The notes under the pieces are model-generated. The model saw nothing but the letters and a program-made list of their open reading frames with translations. It did not search any database and was not told the origin of the DNA. The translations under genes were made by a program, and so were the position numbers. Below, one piece after another: positions 10,283 to 61,039 of a stretch of DNA of 64,000 bases. The stretch's first letter is position 1; each line of letters starts with the position of its first letter. The DNA is from a virus, in the IMG/VR virus record IMGVR_UViG_3300007513_000009, one strand, 5' to 3'.

Positions 10283-11644
10283 ATGTCTAAAAAGAAGATT
10301 TTGTTGATGTCGGATGATTTAAGAATGCATAGTGGTATAGCTACTGTATCTAAAGATATTGTAGTTGAAACTTTACATAAATATGATTGGGTTCAATTGG
10401 CTGGTGCTATAAAACATCCTGAAGAAGGTAAGGTGGTGAATATGGATGCGGCAATAGCAGACATATCAGGGGTAAATGATGCAAAATTGACAATTTATCC
10501 AACAAGTGGATATGGTAATCCAGAAGTAGTAAGAGAAATATTAGTTAGAGAAAAACCAGATGCAATACTACACTATACTGATCCAAGATTTTGGATTTGG
10601 TTTTATGAGATGGAAGCGGAAATTCGTAGAGAGATTCCAATTTTTTATTATAACATTTGGGATGATTTACCAGATCCACAATACAATACAAATTATTATA
10701 GAAGTTCTAATTTGTTAATGGCAATATCAAAACAGACTTATGGTATAAATAAACGATTGTTACCAGATTATGAAGATTGGCAAGTAACTTATGTTCCACA
10801 TGGTATTTCATCTCGTAGGTTTTATAAAATTGATGATGCTGATAATGAACTTTTGGAATTTAATGATAAATTTGGAATATCGGATAAAAAATTTAGAGTA
10901 TTATATAGTAATAGAAATATTAGAAGAAAACAACCAGGCGATGTTATGTTGGCATATAAATACTTTATGGATGAGTTAACTCCTGAACAACGAGATGAAT
11001 GTGTATTGATATACCATTGTGCTCCAGTAGATGATAATGGAACTGATTTGCCAAGGATGTGTAGACATTTGATGCCAGATTATGATGTATGTTACACACA
11101 TCATATGGGCGGAACATTTGAAGATAAAGAAATGAATTTATTATTTAATTCATCTGATGTCTATATTAACCTTGCTAGTAATGAGGGTTTTGGTTTAGGT
11201 AGTGCTGAAGCACTTACAGTTGAGACACCCATTATTGTAAATGTTACAGGTGGTTTACAAGATCAATGTGGATTTAGAAATGAAGATGGGGAACTGTTGA
11301 TACCAGATGATTATGTTGAGTTGGGTAGTAACCATAGGGGTAAATACAAAAATCACGGTGAATGGGTAAAACCTGTTTATCCAGCGAGTCGTTCATTACA
11401 AGGTTCTCCACCCACACCATATATTTGGGATGATAGATGTAATCCAGAAGATGCTGCACCATTACTTCGTGAGTTCTATGATATGGGTAGAGAAGAAAGA
11501 AAAAGACTTGGTTCATTGGGAGCTCAGTTCTGTAAAGACAATCAAATGACATCTGAAGAAATGGGTGCCAACTTTATTAAGTCTATGGATGGGGCATTTA
11601 AAAATTGGAAACCAGCAAAAAGATATACGGTGGAGAAGATATGA
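10283..11644 (+). CDS. GT-B (GT4-like) glycosyltransferase
   Basis: VPHGI, NRNIRRK, NEGFGLGSAEA. Confidence 0.9.
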   Translation: MSKKKILLMSDDLRMHSGIATVSKDIVVETLHKYDWVQLAGAIKHPEEGKVVNMDAAIADISGVNDAKLTIYPTSGYGNPEVVREILVREKPDAILHYTDPRFWIWFYEMEAEIRREIPIFYYNIWDDLPDPQYNTNYYRSSNLLMAISKQTYGINKRLLPDYEDWQVTYVPHGISSRRFYKIDDADNELLEFNDKFGISDKKFRVLYSNRNIRRKQPGDVMLAYKYFMDELTPEQRDECVLIYHCAPVDDNGTDLPRMCRHLMPDYDVCYTHHMGGTFEDKEMNLLFNSSDVYINLASNEGFGLGSAEALTVETPIIVNVTGGLQDQCGFRNEDGELLIPDDYVELGSNHRGKYKNHGEWVKPVYPASRSLQGSPPTPYIWDDRCNPEDAAPLLREFYDMGREERKRLGSLGAQFCKDNQMTSEEMGANFIKSMDGAFKNWKPAKRYTVEKI

Positions 11645-12996
11645 AAACTAAAGTAGTTATGACAGCACCTTTTAATACTCGTAGTGGATATGGAGATCAT
11701 GCTAGGTCTATTTTTTATTCGATTATGGATAGGGATGATATTGATATAACATGTGTTGATACTAAGTGGGGAGAAACTCCAAGAAATCATTTAAATCTTA
11801 AAGTACCAAGGCATAAAAAATTGTTAGATGTTTTAACTGTAGATACCAATTTAGATTTTCAACCAGATGTTTATATTGATATTCGAATTCCAAATGAATT
11901 TGCTCAAGTAGGAAAATATAATTTAGGAATTACTGCTGGGGTTGAAACTGATATAGTTTCTCCTGAATTTATAGAAGGTGCTAATAAAATGAATCTGAAT
12001 ATAGTACCATCAGAGTTTACTCAAAAAACATTTCTTAATACAGTTTATGATAAGTCGGAAGGGGCGGGTGATGAAAAGAAAAAAGTTGGAGAACATAGAT
12101 TACAGAAGCCAGTATTAGTTTTATCTGAGGGAATTGATGTTGATGTATATAAACCATTTGATACTACTAAAATAAAATCTAATTTTAAAGATGAAATGGA
12201 AGAAATCTTGAAAGATGAATCCATTGTTTATCTTCATGTCGGTTTGTGGGGTAAAGGTGCATATGGTGAGGATAGAAAAAATATATCTTTAATGATTAAA
12301 ACTTTTTATGAGGCTTTTGCAAATGATCCTAAAGAACCCACACCGGCTTTATTAATAAAAACTAATGGGTCTAATTTTTCAGTTTTAGATAGATATAGTA
12401 CTGTTAAGAGAATAAAAGAAATAAAAAAGAAGTTTGGGGGTATTGATAAATTACCTAATGTTTATTTATTACATGGGGATTTGACAATAGAACAAATGGC
12501 TATTTTATATAATTTACCTAAGATAAAAGCTTTTTTAACTTGTACTCATGGTGAGGGGTTTGGACGACCAATGTTAGAAGCTAGTTGTTGTGATTTACCA
12601 GTTATTGCTTCTAATTGGAGTGGGCATTTAGACTTTCTTAATTCTTCCGAATCATTATTAATTCAAGGAAAATTAAAGAAAGTTCCAGAAGCAATGGTTT
12701 GGAAACCAATAATTGAAGCACAGTCTAAATGGTATGATGTTGGTGAGGGCGATGTTAAAAGAAAATTGCGGTTGTTTTATAATAATGTTAAAGGAATTAC
12801 TGGTAGGGCAAAATCTCTTGGTAAGAAAAATAGAAAAAAGTTTTCTTTAGAAAAAATGGCTTTTGATTTTAATAAAATATTGGATGATATAATAAAAAAT
12901 ATTCCACAACAAGTATCTTTGAAATTACCTAAATTAAAAAAAGTTGGTAGTACAAAATCAAATAGATTAAAATTACCAAAATTGAAAAAACAATGA
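11641..12996 (+). CDS. GT-B (GT4-like) glycosyltransferase
   Basis: SGYGDHAR, DRKNI, GEGFGRPMLEA, WSGHLDF. Confidence 0.9.
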   Translation: MKTKVVMTAPFNTRSGYGDHARSIFYSIMDRDDIDITCVDTKWGETPRNHLNLKVPRHKKLLDVLTVDTNLDFQPDVYIDIRIPNEFAQVGKYNLGITAGVETDIVSPEFIEGANKMNLNIVPSEFTQKTFLNTVYDKSEGAGDEKKKVGEHRLQKPVLVLSEGIDVDVYKPFDTTKIKSNFKDEMEEILKDESIVYLHVGLWGKGAYGEDRKNISLMIKTFYEAFANDPKEPTPALLIKTNGSNFSVLDRYSTVKRIKEIKKKFGGIDKLPNVYLLHGDLTIEQMAILYNLPKIKAFLTCTHGEGFGRPMLEASCCDLPVIASNWSGHLDFLNSSESLLIQGKLKKVPEAMVWKPIIEAQSKWYDVGEGDVKRKLRLFYNNVKGITGRAKSLGKKNRKKFSLEKMAFDFNKILDDIIKNIPQQVSLKLPKLKKVGSTKSNRLKLPKLKKQ

Positions 12997-53099: not shown

Positions 53100-54141
53100 C
53101 ATAATGGTTATGTTAGCAATACTATTTATACTTTGTTTACTATTTGGATATCTGATTGGTATAGAAAGTGAAAAGTATCCTAAATGAAGCAAGGAGAAAA
53201 AATGAAGGTTATTAAAAAGATAAAGAAGAAAAATATGAAGATTAATAAGATGGGATATGATAGTAGGAATCATTGGTGGTGGGTAACTAAAGGACATAAA
53301 TTATATATTAGAGATGAGAAAGCTAATTGGAATTTAGATAAAAATGGTGGAGAAGGATAATGAAAAAGAATAGCAAATTAGATAAATGTGTAGTATGTGG
53401 AGTGGATACACAATATAGAGTAGATGAACATATTGACTTCCGTATGGGTTATATTGAAGGATGTGGACAATTATGTTTAGATTGTTGGGATAAAATATAC
53501 TATAAACCGTTGATAGACAAATTGACAGAAACAGAAAAACAGAAAAACGGAATTGAGATTACAGTATGACATTCAAAGAATATAAAGATACATGGTTAAA
53601 AGAGAAGATATTTGTAGATGAGTATGGTAGAGACCACAACTTATCCGATACACCGATGACTATGATGAGTAGAAAAGATGCATATAATAAAAGAAAATTA
53701 TCAAATAAACAGATAAATAAAATATATAGTGATTGGATATTGAAAAACTATATGAAACACGCTGAGGTATAAAGTTATGAAAAAAAATAAATCTAAAGAA
53801 CCATTCCATATAGTGAATCGATATAAAAAGTACACTTCAACGGAAGGTTACTCATTTTGGGCAAAAAATGAAGAAGATGGTAAATTATATCTTCAACATA
53901 TGGGTTGGGGGTCAGATACATTGAAAGAAGTGAGTCCAAAATGATAGACTAAGATATACCTTATAAGAGTGGTACATATTCATTAATCACCACTCTTAAC
54001 CACAATTACCCACCTTATAATACTCTAATCATTACGATTAGGGTATTTTTTATATTATAATATAATCTCAAATATATATTGTCCACACACGCCGTGGTCG
54101 GAAAAAATCCCTAAGTTGAACAATATATGTAGATATAAAGC

Positions 54142-54659
54142 TTGACTTTATCAATAACTTTATGTATATTTCGTCCCTACCATAAGCTAGAGATTTGGAT
54201 TTAAAACCCAAATACTACGATAAAAGGGCAAAAAAGTTCCAAAATAATTAAAATAAAGCTTGACTTATATAGCTTTTTATGTGTATATTGAGGGGGGTAT
54301 ATATAAAAAAAAAGGTTAATTCATCACTATTGAGACTCGATATCGAGCGTGGTGTATATCTTTATATTGTTATAGTTAGAACTATTGAGATTGAGTCTCA
54401 ATAAGCCGTGGGGGGACTAACTTATGGTGTAATTATTTTAAAAAAAGTGAAGAAAAGTCTTGACTTATATGGTATTTCTTTAGTATATTCATATATGACA
54501 AAAGGAGAAAAAACGATGAACTTAGTGTCTCAAAGCCTGTCTGATTTATCAGATACCATAATGGGTGAAATAGTAGGAAAGGGCGTAAACCTATACGAAA
54601 TTTTTAATCCAATATATTTCAGAAATGTCTTGACTTATATTGCATTTTAGTTGTATTAT
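54142..54659 (+). promoter_or_regulatory. Cluster of four tandem sigma70-like promoters upstream of the AAA ATPase
   Basis: TTGACT at 54142, 54260, 54460, 54630, each with TATATT/TATTAT at 17-18 bp spacing. Confidence 0.75.
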
Positions 54660-56352: not shown

Positions 56353-56598
56353 ATGGAAGAGTATTTTCTAAAAAATTCTAACTCTAATATTAAGTTTATT
56401 ATCAATATGTTAGGCCTGTTGGGTGCTATTGGTGGTGGTTGGTATAAGTTAGAGAACAGAGTATCTGCGTTGGAACAAGAATTACAACAACAAGATAAAG
56501 TAAAGACTATACAGGCAGAAATTGAATTAATGAAGAGAGACCAACAATTAGAAGAACTGAAGTGGCAATTCAAATTAGACTCTCTGAAGAGGTATTAA
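56353..56598 (+). CDS. TM + coiled-coil small protein
   Basis: IINMLGLLGAIGGGW followed by a heptad-rich segment. Confidence 0.5.
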   Translation: MEEYFLKNSNSNIKFIINMLGLLGAIGGGWYKLENRVSALEQELQQQDKVKTIQAEIELMKRDQQLEELKWQFKLDSLKRY

Positions 56599-56601
56599 GA
56601 T

Positions 56602-57273
56602 ATGATTAAGTTAAAAGATTTATTAAATGAAGCTATAACACCAAAGGGTTGGAATCAAAGTAAAAAGTTTATTAAAATCCTTGATAGAGAAACAAAAAAT
56701 CTAAAAAAATATCATAACCAACAAAATGATGAGGATTTTCTAGAAGTTGTAGATTACATGCAATTACAATTAGATATGATAAAAAAGAATATAAGAGAAT
56801 CCGTAAATGAAAAGGTAAATAAATCAGATTTAAAATATCAATTAGATATGTCTTTAGATAATCTTGGTATTGGTACAAAAGCTTTAATCGCTATGAAACC
56901 AAAAGGTAAAGATTTCTTTTTAAAAATGAAAAGTTATATGTATCAAGATAGTATGGGAGATGTATTAAAAGATGCAAATAAAAATTTAAATTCAAAACTA
57001 AAAATAAAAAATTTTAAAAAAACAAGAATGGGTACTGAATTTGTAATTGGTGAATCCGTAAATGAAGGTAAGTTCTCAAAAGAACAAATAGAGATTATGC
57101 GGCACGCATATAGTACTCTAAGTAAAATGAATCCATCTTCACCCACTTATAAGAAATTTGTTAAGTTTTTAGATAAGCTACCAAAAGATGAATTAAAACA
57201 ATTAGCCAATGCTAAAATAAAATTTGTATCTATATTAGCAAAGAATAGACTTAAACCTGTGCAAGAGAGATGA
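56602..57273 (+). CDS. MIKLKDLL-leader protein with internal ESVNE repeats
   Basis: MIKLKDLLNE; RESVNE and GESVNE divide it into three blocks. Confidence 0.6.
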   Translation: MIKLKDLLNEAITPKGWNQSKKFIKILDRETKNLKKYHNQQNDEDFLEVVDYMQLQLDMIKKNIRESVNEKVNKSDLKYQLDMSLDNLGIGTKALIAMKPKGKDFFLKMKSYMYQDSMGDVLKDANKNLNSKLKIKNFKKTRMGTEFVIGESVNEGKFSKEQIEIMRHAYSTLSKMNPSSPTYKKFVKFLDKLPKDELKQLANAKIKFVSILAKNRLKPVQER

Positions 57274-57323
57274 GGACATTCAGAACATCCGGCGGATGAT
57301 GATAGACATAAAGTGAAGAGATA

Positions 57324-57695
57324 ATGATTAAATTAAAAGAGTTATTGATTGAAGCAACAATAGCTTGTGGTGAGTGTCTTTCTTATGTTTGGAAAATGGG
57401 AATTATAAATCAAGATAATAAACAAGCAAATAAGAAGATGAAGATTACCTATGGTACTGTTCAGAATAAACATGTGTCTAATAATAAAAGATATAGGCAT
57501 GCTTGGGTAGAAGATGGCAATTTAGTAAAAGATTGGCAAACGATGGTGATGGGTGGAAGTAAATATGCTAAAAAGGGGTGGCCTAAAAAAGAGTATTATT
57601 CATTTTGGAAACCGAAGGTAGATAAAAAATTTACACCTGCTGAAGTAGCACATAATTGGAAAACTAAAAAAACTATAATGGGTTGGGATTGGTAA
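57324..57695 (+). CDS. MIKLKELL-leader protein with transglutaminase/papain-like Cys-His-Asp motif
   Basis: CGEC...YGTV...HAWVE...D. Confidence 0.6.
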   Translation: MIKLKELLIEATIACGECLSYVWKMGIINQDNKQANKKMKITYGTVQNKHVSNNKRYRHAWVEDGNLVKDWQTMVMGGSKYAKKGWPKKEYYSFWKPKVDKKFTPAEVAHNWKTKKTIMGWDW

Positions 57696-58015
57696 TGATA
57701 AAATTAAAAGATTTATTAAGAGAGGTTAATATAGGTGATACATATATTAGTTCAGATGGAAAATATGTAAATTTGGTATTTGATAAGTTTATGAAAGGTA
57801 AATGGCGTACAATAGGATTTGATTTGGGACCACGACATTTTATTAGAGATATTGGAACATCACCTGAACATTTACTTGGGATGTATGGTAAGTTAAAAAA
57901 ATTATCTTCATCACAAAAAAATGCAATTAAAAAGATTTTAAAAAATCCTGAAGATATTGATATGGTTAAAAGAGATGGTCAAAATGTAAATAAAGTGTTG
58001 AAGGCACTAAAATGA
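57695..58015 (+). CDS. MIKLKDLL-leader hypothetical protein
   Basis: MIKLKDLLRE; ATG overlaps the previous stop. Confidence 0.6.
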   Translation: MIKLKDLLREVNIGDTYISSDGKYVNLVFDKFMKGKWRTIGFDLGPRHFIRDIGTSPEHLLGMYGKLKKLSSSQKNAIKKILKNPEDIDMVKRDGQNVNKVLKALK

Positions 58016-58794
58016 TTAAATTAATAGATTTACTATTTGAACAATGGACTAAAAGGATGGGTAAACCTTTAACCAAGGCAGAGATTACTGCACTTAAAAA
58101 GAAACTAAAAGCACCTTCAGTTCGTAAAGGTCCAAAAAAACAATTGATGCCACCTAATCTTTCCGATAGAGAGAAACATCATATAATCTTTGTAATGTTG
58201 AAAAAGACAAGAGATAAGAATTTGAAAAAGTTTGGTGGTGGTATTCAAAAACATTGGACTAAAATGTCTAAAGCAGAAAAAGAAAAAATAGGTAAATTAG
58301 GTGAGATTGCAGCAAGAATCAAACCAACAAAATTTAAAGATATTTATAACGCATTGCCGATCGATTTAAAAAAAAGAGTTTACAATTTAAAAAAATATGA
58401 TCAAAGAAGGGATGCCCATCCTGAAGGTAATGTATTGAAACATACCATAGCTGTAACTAATAGAGCATTACAAACAGGTGATATAGATTTCGCACTTGCC
58501 GCATTATTTCATGATATAGGTAAAGATGAAACAGCGGCACTTCATCCAAAGAAAGGATTTTGGACACACTATGGGCATGAGCATGTTTCAGCTAAGTTGG
58601 TTAAGAAATATGCTAAGTGGATAAAATCAATGGGTGGTAATGCAGTTGATATTTACTTTATAGTTAAACAACATATGAGAATGAAAGTATTTGATAAGAT
58701 GAAATGGACTAAACAAGAAAAATTAAAGAAATTTAGAGCATATGATAAATTGAAAAAATTCTCAACAACAATGGATAAGGGTGGTAGAAAATGA
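58012..58794 (+). CDS. MIKLIDLL-leader protein with HD domain of CCA-adding-enzyme type
   Basis: HPEGNVLKHT, ALFHDIGK, HYGHEHVSA, QHM. Confidence 0.8.
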   Translation: MIKLIDLLFEQWTKRMGKPLTKAEITALKKKLKAPSVRKGPKKQLMPPNLSDREKHHIIFVMLKKTRDKNLKKFGGGIQKHWTKMSKAEKEKIGKLGEIAARIKPTKFKDIYNALPIDLKKRVYNLKKYDQRRDAHPEGNVLKHTIAVTNRALQTGDIDFALAALFHDIGKDETAALHPKKGFWTHYGHEHVSAKLVKKYAKWIKSMGGNAVDIYFIVKQHMRMKVFDKMKWTKQEKLKKFRAYDKLKKFSTTMDKGGRK

Positions 58795-59063
58795 ATAATA
58801 CTTTAACACTAACATTAAAAAAACAATTTTTTGATGAAATACTAAATGGTACTAAAACAATAGAGTATAGAGATATATCTGACTATTGGACACCACGATT
58901 AGAAAATAAAGACTATAATGTTATTGTATTTAGAAATGGATATAATTCAAATTCACCTACTATGAAAGTAGAATATAAAGAATTGACTATTGATAGGCAA
59001 TCTGTACCCAATAGATATGCGTTAGTATTGGGTGAAGTTTTAGAAACATCTAATATAAATTAA
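58791..59063 (+). CDS. ASCH/PUA-like domain protein
   Basis: FFDEILNGTKTIEYR...FRNGY. Confidence 0.85.
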   Translation: MNNTLTLTLKKQFFDEILNGTKTIEYRDISDYWTPRLENKDYNVIVFRNGYNSNSPTMKVEYKELTIDRQSVPNRYALVLGEVLETSNIN

Positions 59064-59314
59064 TAATTTAAAGGGGGCATATCACATGGGATTATTTGGG
59101 AACGACTATGAAGAAAGAATGAAATTAATTGAAGAAAAATTAATTCAACTTGAAAAAGATGTAGAAGCTTCATATTCGGAAATTAAAGAAGATATAAAAC
59201 GATTAAAACCAAGTTCTAAATCACCCCAAGATAATACAGAAACAATAACAAATTTGAATCAACGGCTTGAGACAATAGAAAAAAGGTTGATGATAGGAGG
59301 GTGGGCAGCAAAAT

Positions 59315-59352
59315 AAAAAAACCCCATTAAATAATATAATAGGGGTTTTTTT
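59315..59352. terminator. Bidirectional intrinsic terminator between convergent genes
   Basis: A-tract-CCCC...GGGG-T-tract. Confidence 0.8.
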
Positions 59353-59364
59353 AGTAGTATTGGA

Positions 59365-59559
59365 TTACTTAGAACCGAATACCTTTGAGAAAAAGCCTTT
59401 CTTCTTTTTCTTTCCTTTTCCAACTTTTTTCTTTTTCTTACTCTTCTTCTTTTTCTTCACTTCTTCCATACCTGCCATATTAAAATCTGCAGCATTAGCA
59501 GTTGGAACAGCACTAAAGAAGATAAATAAAGATAAGATTCCTGTCAATATATTTTTCAT
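59365..59559 (-). CDS. Secreted Lys-rich cationic peptide
   Basis: RBS GGAG, signal peptide ending ANA, 18 Lys in the 41-aa mature part; convergent terminator downstream. Confidence 0.7.
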   Translation of the reverse strand: MKNILTGILSLFIFFSAVPTANAADFNMAGMEEVKKKKKSKKKKKVGKGKKKKKGFFSKVFGSK

Positions 59560-59905: not shown

Positions 59906-60517
59906 ATGAATTATAGAATGTTATATAACCCGGATCATCTGGGAAAACTACTAAAAATAAATATCCCAAATAGTGATGTTGTGGCAAATAATTGTAAATC
60001 ATTTATATTATCTGATGAGGGTAGAGAGATTATAAAAAGACCACATTGGGTAATGAATAATATTCAGTACAATGCTTTTCGATGGCCAGGCCCCTTTGCA
60101 AATTTATATTTTTGGATAAGAACAGAGTTTTTTAAATATGCGAAAGAAATTGATATTGATATGACTATACCATATTATATTCATGGATGGGTTAATATAT
60201 TTGAAAAGGGTGATTTCATTGATTGGCATAATCATATGGATAGATATACACCTAATACATATCATGGTGTATTTTGTGTAAATGCTCCAGAAGATTCATA
60301 TACTCTATATAGAAATGATAAAAATGAAATATATGATGAAGTAAAATCCGAAACAGGGAATTGTCATATAATTTGTGATATGATAACTTATCATAAATCT
60401 ACTGAGAATAAATCGGATGAGCCAAGAATTACATTAGCCTTTGATATAATAACACCATCAGAATATAATGGTACTTGGAAGCATGAAACTGGAAATCAAT
60501 TTATACCATTTATTTGA
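59906..60517 (+). CDS. 2OG-Fe(II) oxygenase
   Basis: GWVN...DWHNH...YHGVF...YHKS...RITLAFD. Confidence 0.8.
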   Translation: MNYRMLYNPDHLGKLLKINIPNSDVVANNCKSFILSDEGREIIKRPHWVMNNIQYNAFRWPGPFANLYFWIRTEFFKYAKEIDIDMTIPYYIHGWVNIFEKGDFIDWHNHMDRYTPNTYHGVFCVNAPEDSYTLYRNDKNEIYDEVKSETGNCHIICDMITYHKSTENKSDEPRITLAFDIITPSEYNGTWKHETGNQFIPFI

Positions 60518-60674: not shown

Positions 60675-60700
60675 CATATATGAAAAAAAAGGAAAACACA

Positions 60701-61039
60701 ATGAACTTAAAAGAATATTTGGAAAAAAATAAAGTAGAGTCTACCAATTCTATGGAATGGCTACCAAGTGTTGGTGCTGTTCTTAATACTGAGAATGGTG
60801 ATTTACTACCTGTTAATGAAGATAGTTCTATTGATTTTGACGAAGGTGTAATGAACAATTTAATGGATATGGATATTTCAGATGAATCTGAAGAGTGGTA
60901 TGAATCATTACATCCTGTTGATAAAAAGGTTGTTGATGAAACGATGGATGAATTGGGTTATCAAAGGACTATGGTTATTTTAGGTGTTGCACAAAAAGAA
61001 ACTGATCGTAGATTAACAGATTTAATGGAGGGGTTATAA
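60701..61039 (+). CDS. Acidic hypothetical protein (paralog of 61475-61672)
   Basis: LPSVGAVLNT..G...WYESLHPVD. Confidence 0.55.
   Translation: MNLKEYLEKNKVESTNSMEWLPSVGAVLNTENGDLLPVNEDSSIDFDEGVMNNLMDMDISDESEEWYESLHPVDKKVVDETMDELGYQRTMVILGVAQKETDRRLTDLMEGL

Follow-up and report, generated by a model that had tools for sequence, protein, structure and literature searches.

A ten-residue N-terminal leader on unrelated proteins of a marine T4-like phage as a probable counterpart of the T4 capsid-targeting sequence

Introduction

In a stretch of 64,000 nucleotides from the IMG/VR virus record IMGVR_UViG_3300007513_000009 (the whole stretch that was analysed, called the window below), an uncultured, marine, T4-like phage encodes four adjacent genes whose products share a ten-residue N-terminus. 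These open reading frames (ORF1 to ORF4) start with MIKL[KI][DE]LLxE and have nothing else in common. We propose that this leader, with the consensus MIKLKDLLxE, is a likely capsid-targeting propeptide of a marine T4-like lineage and the counterpart of the capsid-targeting sequence (CTS) of T4, a reading drawn from sequence comparison. By analogy with T4, the proteins behind the leader, referred to here as cargoes, probably travel inside the capsid and are delivered together with the DNA. The concept is already established for T4; the consensus, the scale, the enzyme cargo and the polyprotein joints are new here. Within the openly accessible literature searched, no paper was found to report the leader sequences or to connect a CTS with marine T4-like phages or with pelagimyophages.

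Results

A common leader followed by unrelated cargoes

The original prediction, made from the letters of the window, described four ORFs with a common MIKLxxLLxE leader that diverge thereafter. Scanning the entire 131,241-bp genome in all six frames bore this out, since the pattern MIKL..LL.E gave exactly four matches, all of them in the cluster. The chance expectation calculated from residue frequencies is 0.0013 per genome, and no match appeared in 200 triplet shuffles. When the first ten residues of all ORFs were clustered with no motif given, these N-termini formed the largest family in the genome and in one relative, while control windows yielded about zero pairs. As DNA, the leader copies found by a repeat finder are 67-76% identical over 42 nt, and the likeness stops after the leader. 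All four leaders are 10 residues long, are hydrophobic at positions 4 and 7, and have L-x-E at positions 8-10. A 191-kb contig encodes products identical to ORF1 and ORF4, and no near relative of the region was found among GenBank phages.

An IMG/VR search with a degenerate DNA leader pattern recovered at least 120 stretches. The loci collected gave at least 163 unique leader ORFs, 157 of which are at least 58 amino acids long; with the leader removed, these 157 fall into 95 unrelated cargo clusters among the matches listed (blastp, E 1e-4). In the 157 leaders listed, a set defined by the search pattern, L4, [LI]7, L8 and E10 are fixed, and position 9 varies freely. Their codons vary: ATT, ATA and ATC encode Ile2 in 77, 70 and 8 cases, GAT and GAC encode Asp6 in 62 and 52, GAA and GAG encode Glu10 in 122 and 33, and Leu4 uses five codons. 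The 30 nt upstream of the ATG carry about 0.2 bit per position, which amounts to no conservation, and information content drops to about 0.2-0.4 bit straight after codon 10. Because the search pattern itself defined this set, two motif-independent sets weigh more. Homologues of ORF2 collected by whole-protein search, which is independent of the motif, bear the leader at their start in about 58 of 62 cases, with drift at positions 5, 6 and 9. ES[VI]NE, a motif found at internal joints (see below), is encoded with both serine codon families, TCN and AGY. The original prediction had named conservation of nucleotides rather than amino acids as an observation that would speak against it; what we found is that synonymous codons vary and the upstream sequence is unconserved. 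Conservation of the leader acts at the amino-acid level.

The leader fits the rules of the T4 capsid-targeting sequence

The T4 CTS comprises the first 10 residues of IPIII, of which residues 4 and 7 matter most for targeting and residues 8 and 10 for processing; the protease gp21 cuts after Glu in L/I-x-E (PMC9026906). The internal proteins of T-even phages are diverse and have only the CTS in common, and the CTS has been considered as a possible general loading route for T4-like phages (PMC3012670, PMC9026906). The fixed positions of our leaders, L4, [LI]7, L8 and E10, are those mapped as functional in the T4 CTS, and the tag thus fits the T4 rules. The resemblance to a T4 CTS of about ten residues ending in (L/I)xE, which the original prediction had pointed out, extends to positions 4, 7, 8 and 10.

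In the T4 record, IPII and IPIII begin with MKTYQEFIAE followed by A, and alt.-1, an Alt paralogue annotated as a duplicate of the alt start, begins with MELITE followed by L. The CTS is reportedly carried by IPI, IPII and IPIII (and Alt) of T4 and removed by gp21 (Mullaney & Black 1996; Repoila et al. 1994; reviewed in PMC9026906 and PMC3012670). The N-terminal propeptide of gp24 is also removed by gp21. Its ten residues, MAKINELLRE (followed by S in the T4 record), fit the leader pattern M-x-K-[IL]-x-[DE]-L-L-x-E. The T4 scaffold gp22 begins with MLKEQLIAE followed by A.

A gp23-type major capsid protein is encoded in the phage genome (PF07068, E 2e-76), immediately preceded by the gene of an acidic, coiled-coil, scaffold-like protein of 358 amino acids. 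We compared the leader with the putative cleavage motifs of both proteins, as the original prediction had proposed. As in T4, the N-terminus of the scaffold itself resembles the tag: it starts MSDLLKE/A (a slash marks a junction), so that DLLKE/A can be set beside DLLNE/A of ORF1. The capsid protein aligns with T4 gp23 from residue 83, and its propeptide region contains I-S-E and L-L-E sites. All genes of the genome lie on one strand. Ribosomal protein S21, reported to be a core gene product of pelagimyophages (PMC7029224), and an actin-like protein are also encoded, the latter within the head module. The record, about 70% complete, stops within the head module, and the portal and protease genes are missing.

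Leader genes lie among T4-type head genes in relatives

Relative G001 (168,793 bp, 95% complete) encodes a Peptidase_S77 prohead protease (E 5e-30; phrog_207, E 3e-54) that shares 34% identity with T4 gp21 across the catalytic core. Its leader genes lie directly downstream of the protease gene and upstream of the scaffold and capsid genes, with four more elsewhere in the genome. In G014, too, leader genes occupy the interval from the protease gene to the scaffold and capsid genes. Including these two, a gp21-family protease is present in the relatives G001, G004, G014, G020, G024 and G008, and gp21 and gp23 occur together in 4 of 5 near-complete leader-bearing genomes. In a survey of 23 head modules anchored on the actin-like gene, 14 contain one or more strict leader genes between the protease and actin genes. 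Almost all 23 also contain sister tags of two families, both with [LI]-x-E at positions 8-10. One, M[AK]KLK[NSD][IL]LxE/[VI], is carried by a conserved gene of 190-250 amino acids; the other, MK[IL][TS]KxQ[LI]KE/[IL] (for example MKITKSQLKEI), is borne by several small genes in a given head module (for example in L274, L280 and L295). G020 (163 kb) has six sites of a variant, MIKFKDILxE, including those at 53718, 54163 and 87031-88414, whose Phe at position 4 is nearer the aromatic position 4 of the T4 CTS. Reversed-pattern controls in this search for leader variants in near-complete genomes gave zero.

The cluster itself is a variable island. When an AAA ATPase gene upstream of it was used as an anchor to fetch 80 IMG/VR relatives, leader genes lay within the fetched flanks in only 4 of the 80 loci (L003, L049, L054 and L077). 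In the closest relative, L003, the leader genes bear different cargo. The block 56353-59316, which holds an 81-residue gene, the leader genes, a gene with an ASCH domain and a 76-residue gene, is inverted against its flanks in L003 (10218-12571), and no inverted repeats flank this block in the window.

Junction motifs coincide with module boundaries

Besides the leader, ORF1 contains two internal ESVNE motifs, and the DNA repeat seen there by the original prediction is one exact 15-mer, GAATCCGTAAATGAA, encoding both copies (Table 1). The motifs were proposed to mark cleavage sites of a polyprotein, a proposal that comparison with relatives supports: module boundaries coincide with ESVNE in dozens of them. 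Homologues of ORF1 match single modules only. Module C, the last of its three modules, occurs in about 90 proteins and in three settings, namely after the leader (for example MIKLKDLLNE/AKFSKDQ...), after an internal ESVNE, ESINE or PINE, and after a bare Met. It is followed by GESVNE in at least 90% of the aligned homologues; ORF1 lacks this trailing motif because module C is its last module. The gene calls of some relatives begin at the boundary between modules A and B, and longer relatives are chains of modules joined by GESVNE, ELSVNE or VESVNE (for example P0170), with four such joints in L210. In G001, a 502-residue protein encoded next to the protease has a DUF3008 start and is punctuated by KLNE/K, KIKE/A, KLKE/G and KLTE/S. 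The enrichment of S[VI]NE in leader-bearing ORFs is modest, at about 3-fold (8 sites against 59), since many polyproteins with ESVNE have N-termini of another kind; the polyprotein reading therefore rests on the module boundaries instead.

A joint of similar kind was found in ORF4, whose HD module begins after K-L-G-E98; the aligned start of its homologues is ...E/IA[AV]R.KP.KF. In these homologues the module follows the leader (MIKLKDLFNE/IAVRP), a bare Met (MNE/IAVRK) or internal [LIM]xE joints (...LGMNE/ and ...KKIKE/). Thirteen HD-module homologues bear another leader, MK[ST]F..[HY]I.E, with [IL]xE at positions 8-10 in 11 of them, and one such leader, MMIQTFGEFQIAE/A, is close to the CTS of T4 itself. 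That one HD cargo carries different, lineage-specific 10-residue tags is the strongest comparative argument that the tag serves as an address and cut site and is not part of the enzyme.

Identities of the cargoes

The original prediction had named helical blocks, a transglutaminase-like Cys-His-Asp domain and an HD domain among the cargoes. The HD domain was confirmed in ORF4 (PF01966, E 1.2e-8, 35.7 bits against a cut-off of 22), which contains the H...HD metal-binding motif (LKHT...FHDIGK) and matches phrog_2244, an HD region of the tRNA nucleotidyltransferase type. In relatives this module is joined to cytidylyltransferase-like modules and to poly(A) polymerase/CCA-head modules, and ORF4 may have a role in RNA-end or nucleotide metabolism. 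The helical blocks are borne out to the extent that module C of ORF1 is a four-helix domain in a prediction of moderate confidence. The transglutaminase-like domain is kept as a candidate on modest scores, as described below. ORF1, ORF2 and ORF3 have no Pfam or PHROG match.

Among 35 sequences related to ORF2, C15, C18, H59, E63 and D70 are invariant. Its structural model has a predicted local distance difference test score (pLDDT) of 84, and the leader is the sole low-confidence, disordered segment and lies outside the fold. Almost all of the top VIA-align matches of the model are papain-like or transglutaminase-like, at modest Z scores of at most 5.8; they include LapG (Z 5.8) and an NTAQ1-like protein (Z 5.7), and also PeiW, TglA and cathepsins. 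The model has no significant Foldseek match in the PDB or BFVD, and ORF2 has no homologue among GenBank phages. The model is consistent with, and does not prove, a papain-like or transglutaminase-like Cys-His-Asp enzyme.

Leader-bearing homologues of ORF3 occur in L127 and L135. An atlas lead for ORF3, "IpIV internal head protein", had a score of 0.75, which is below the reliability level, and it was not used as evidence. The model of module C matched only uncharacterised homologues in BFVD. A homologue of module C forms the N-terminus of a 229-residue protein of the cultured Rhizobium phage RHph_N46 (L301, MW980063; 6998-7687), whose gene belongs to the structural region and precedes the tail sheath gene. 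As this phage is cultured, its homologue offers a possible experimental handle.

Table 1. Positions of the leader-bearing genes, their predicted junctions and modules, and the gene directly upstream
Feature	Position in window	Strand	Description
Upstream gene, 81 aa	56353-56598	+	Transmembrane segment and coiled coil; directly upstream of the cluster
ORF1, 223 aa	56602-57273	+	Leader MIKLKDLLNE and modules A (residues 11-70), B (71-155) and C (156-223)
Leader of ORF1	56602-56631	+	MIKLKDLLNE; L-N-E at positions 8-10; predicted cut after E10, before Ala
ESVNE junction 1	56797-56811	+	Ends at residue 70; predicted internal protease site between modules A and B
ESVNE junction 2	57052-57066	+	Ends at residue 155; predicted internal protease site before module C
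Module C	57067-57270	+	KFSKEQIEIM...; widespread four-helix module (predicted), last in ORF1
ORF2, 123 aa	57324-57695	+	Leader MIKLKELLIE and small candidate Cys-His-Asp (papain-like/transglutaminase-like) enzyme
ORF3, 106 aa	57695-58015	+	Leader MIKLKDLLRE and cargo without assigned fold or family; length counted from the ATG (automatic ORF calling begins at an upstream TTG, 57683)
ORF4, 260 aa	58012-58794	+	Leader MIKLIDLLFE, basic N-module (11-98) and HD phosphohydrolase module (99-260)
K95-L96-G97-E98	58294-58305	+	Predicted internal junction between E98 and I99, ahead of the HD module
HD domain core (Pfam)	58432-58689	+	Residues 141-226 of ORF4

Neighbouring genes

The upstream gene of 81 residues has a weak PHROG match to an Rz-like spanin (E 1.5e-4) and moves with the leader cluster, being co-inverted with it in L003. 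The ASCH-domain gene (58791-59063), which overlaps the end of ORF4 by 4 nt, also moves with the leader block in L003. Farther downstream are a weakly supported 2OG-Fe(II) oxygenase-like gene (59906-60517) and the sole convincing minus-strand gene nearby (59365-59559), which encodes 64 residues with a signal-peptide-like start and a Lys-rich tail and is conserved in L003. A second shared N-terminal pattern was seen in three ORFs, which begin MTKGEKTMNL, MKKKENTMNL and MEKRNKTMNL; they are located at 54495 (in the ORF 54408-54650), at 60680-61039 and about 1.8 kb past the end of the window. If the true start of these ORFs is the inner MNL, their common part may be a conserved upstream translation or regulatory element.

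Discussion

The original prediction read the leader as a capsid-targeting tag, and every computational test able to contradict this reading came out in its favour. For scaffold binding, cleavage, packaging, injection and cargo function, we infer the following course of events. Late in infection, the tag would form a short amphipathic helix, hydrophobic at positions 4, 7 and 8, and bind the scaffolding core of the assembling prohead, whereby the tagged proteins would be built into it. A gp21-type prohead protease would cut after Glu10 of the L-x-E site and also at internal V/I/L-x-E junctions, that is, at ESVNE in ORF1 and at KLGE in ORF4. Separate modules would be freed inside the head and leave with the DNA at the next infection. 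In this phage, the cargo would consist of the three small ORF1 modules, the small candidate Cys-His-Asp enzyme, a 96-residue protein and an HD phosphohydrolase resembling those attached to CCA-adding enzymes.

Several observations weigh against a capsid-targeting role. A gp21-type prohead protease (PF03420, phrog_207) was not found on the 70%-complete contig, a result that is uninformative rather than negative because the contig stops partway through the head module. Some 50 kb separate the cluster from the head genes, and it is surrounded by non-structural genes; in the T4 record, the ip genes likewise lie outside the head cluster. No T4 late-promoter consensus, TATAAATA, is present upstream of the cluster, and this consensus is not enriched in the genome, where 13 copies were found against 18.6 expected; a scan for sigma-70-like promoters stayed at background level. 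Two genes of L003, at 11901-12086 and 11633-11953 on the minus strand, start with MIKLK and continue as hydrophobic, signal-peptide-like sequences without E10 (MIKLKWILAIILLCGALEP... and MIKLKDLLITFFLLSTLNGQE...), showing that the first five codons can occur outside a CTS. These genes may be products of recombination at the leader or may represent a separate use of the same five codons. Finally, G011 (complete, 207 kb) has one leader-bearing gene and neither a detectable gp21 nor a detectable gp23; this gene may have been acquired by transfer as cargo, or the match may be due to chance. The leader match in G011 lies at 104636-104665 on the minus strand.

The L-x-E at positions 8-10 and the internal junctions prove only a fit to the specificity of a protease. 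The tag could thus be a removable propeptide without any targeting function, which keeps enzymes inactive or flags them so that the head protease activates or destroys them at a set time late in infection, and a cluster that lies outside the head module with no late promoter upstream would suit such a role. T4 gp21, however, acts inside the assembled prohead (PMC9026906), so its substrates must be in the core. Moreover, the hydrophobic positions 4 and 7, needed in T4 for targeting and not for cleavage, are conserved, and the leader genes of relatives lie among core and scaffold genes. We consider a propeptide of this kind improbable. A slightly lower probability still is given to a tag that sends proteins elsewhere, to the membrane, to a filament of the phage actin-like protein or to an assembly site, with the terminal Glu being incidental. 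The actin homologue encoded within the head module and the hydrophobic, signal-like segments behind MIKLK in the two L003 genes point in that direction. Against it, an invariant E10 next to a free position 9 is the signature of a cleavage site, and the internal junctions repeat the same x-N-E motif. The tag is also too short and too charged for a signal peptide, whereas T4 propeptides have the same length and the same pattern.

Two further explanations were rejected. It is very unlikely that the conservation reflects a nucleotide-level element, such as an enhancer of translation initiation or a recombination joint, and not a peptide signal. The start region is very AT-rich, the ESVNE copies of ORF1 use an identical 15-mer that includes a rare TCC codon, and cargo is clearly shuffled at joints, where shared DNA may also help recombination. 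Synonymous sites nevertheless vary freely across the 157 leaders listed, with nothing conserved upstream of the ATG, both serine codon families are used in ES[VI]NE, and the four copies in the window differ in about a quarter to a third of their nucleotides. Least probable of all is that the four genes, adjacent and on the same strand as they are, arose as tandem paralogues in which only the N-termini were kept: their cargoes differ in fold and family (an HD domain, a predicted papain-like alpha/beta fold, and helical modules), the same leader precedes at least 95 unrelated cargo clusters, and the same HD cargo bears different leaders.

Extending the capsid-targeting reading beyond this phage, we consider it an evenly balanced question whether aquatic T4-like phages use a plug-in grammar, in which a lineage-specific 10-residue capsid-loading leader and fixed protease-cut joints such as ESVNE would serve to assemble, shuffle and load large, fast-changing sets of enzymes for co-injection with the DNA, with leaders exchangeable between lineages on the same cargo. 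The enzymes concerned would include HD phosphohydrolases, small cysteine hydrolases and Zeta-type kinases. Such a grammar, if true, would amount to a virion-borne system of injected effectors much larger than the three internal proteins of T4. Should the tag act as the T4 CTS does, dozens of proteins, including enzymes, would be delivered by abundant ocean phages before phage gene expression, adding an unexplored layer of host takeover and counter-defence to marine virus-host interactions. Injected proteins would then be predictable from sequence, by finding the leader and cutting at the joints. The combination of leader, joint and cargo is a testable modular design and could serve for packaging foreign proteins in capsids.

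The leader system resembles the T4 CTS in being a 10-residue N-terminal tag on otherwise unrelated, fast-evolving proteins, in the company of a T4-type protease (in relatives), scaffold and capsid protein, and in having its tagged genes partly outside the head module. The two differ in consensus (MIKLKDLLxE here, MKTYQEFIAE in T4), and the cargo has no sequence homology to T4 internal proteins as judged with Pfam and PHROGs. With at least 95 clusters, the cargo repertoire is far larger than that of T4, and it includes recognisable enzymes, unlike the T4 internal proteins. Many members are chains of several modules with fixed internal junction peptides (ESVNE), an arrangement not described for T4 internal proteins. 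Multiple gp21 cuts at L/I-x-E in one polypeptide, as predicted here, have a precedent in the T4 core proteins gp22, gp67 and gp68, together with the gp24 and gp23 propeptides; those core proteins are essential structural or scaffold components conserved among T4-like phages, whereas the cargo described here is variable and accessory. In the giant phages phiKZ, 201phi2-1 and SPN3US, many head-packaged proteins are cut after Glu by a gp21-related protease, and some of them are ejected (PMC9026906, PMC5694885). Their propeptides, by contrast, are long and share no short tag, and the cleavage motif, S/A-x-E, differs from the one described here two residues before the Glu (PMC9026906, PMC5694885).

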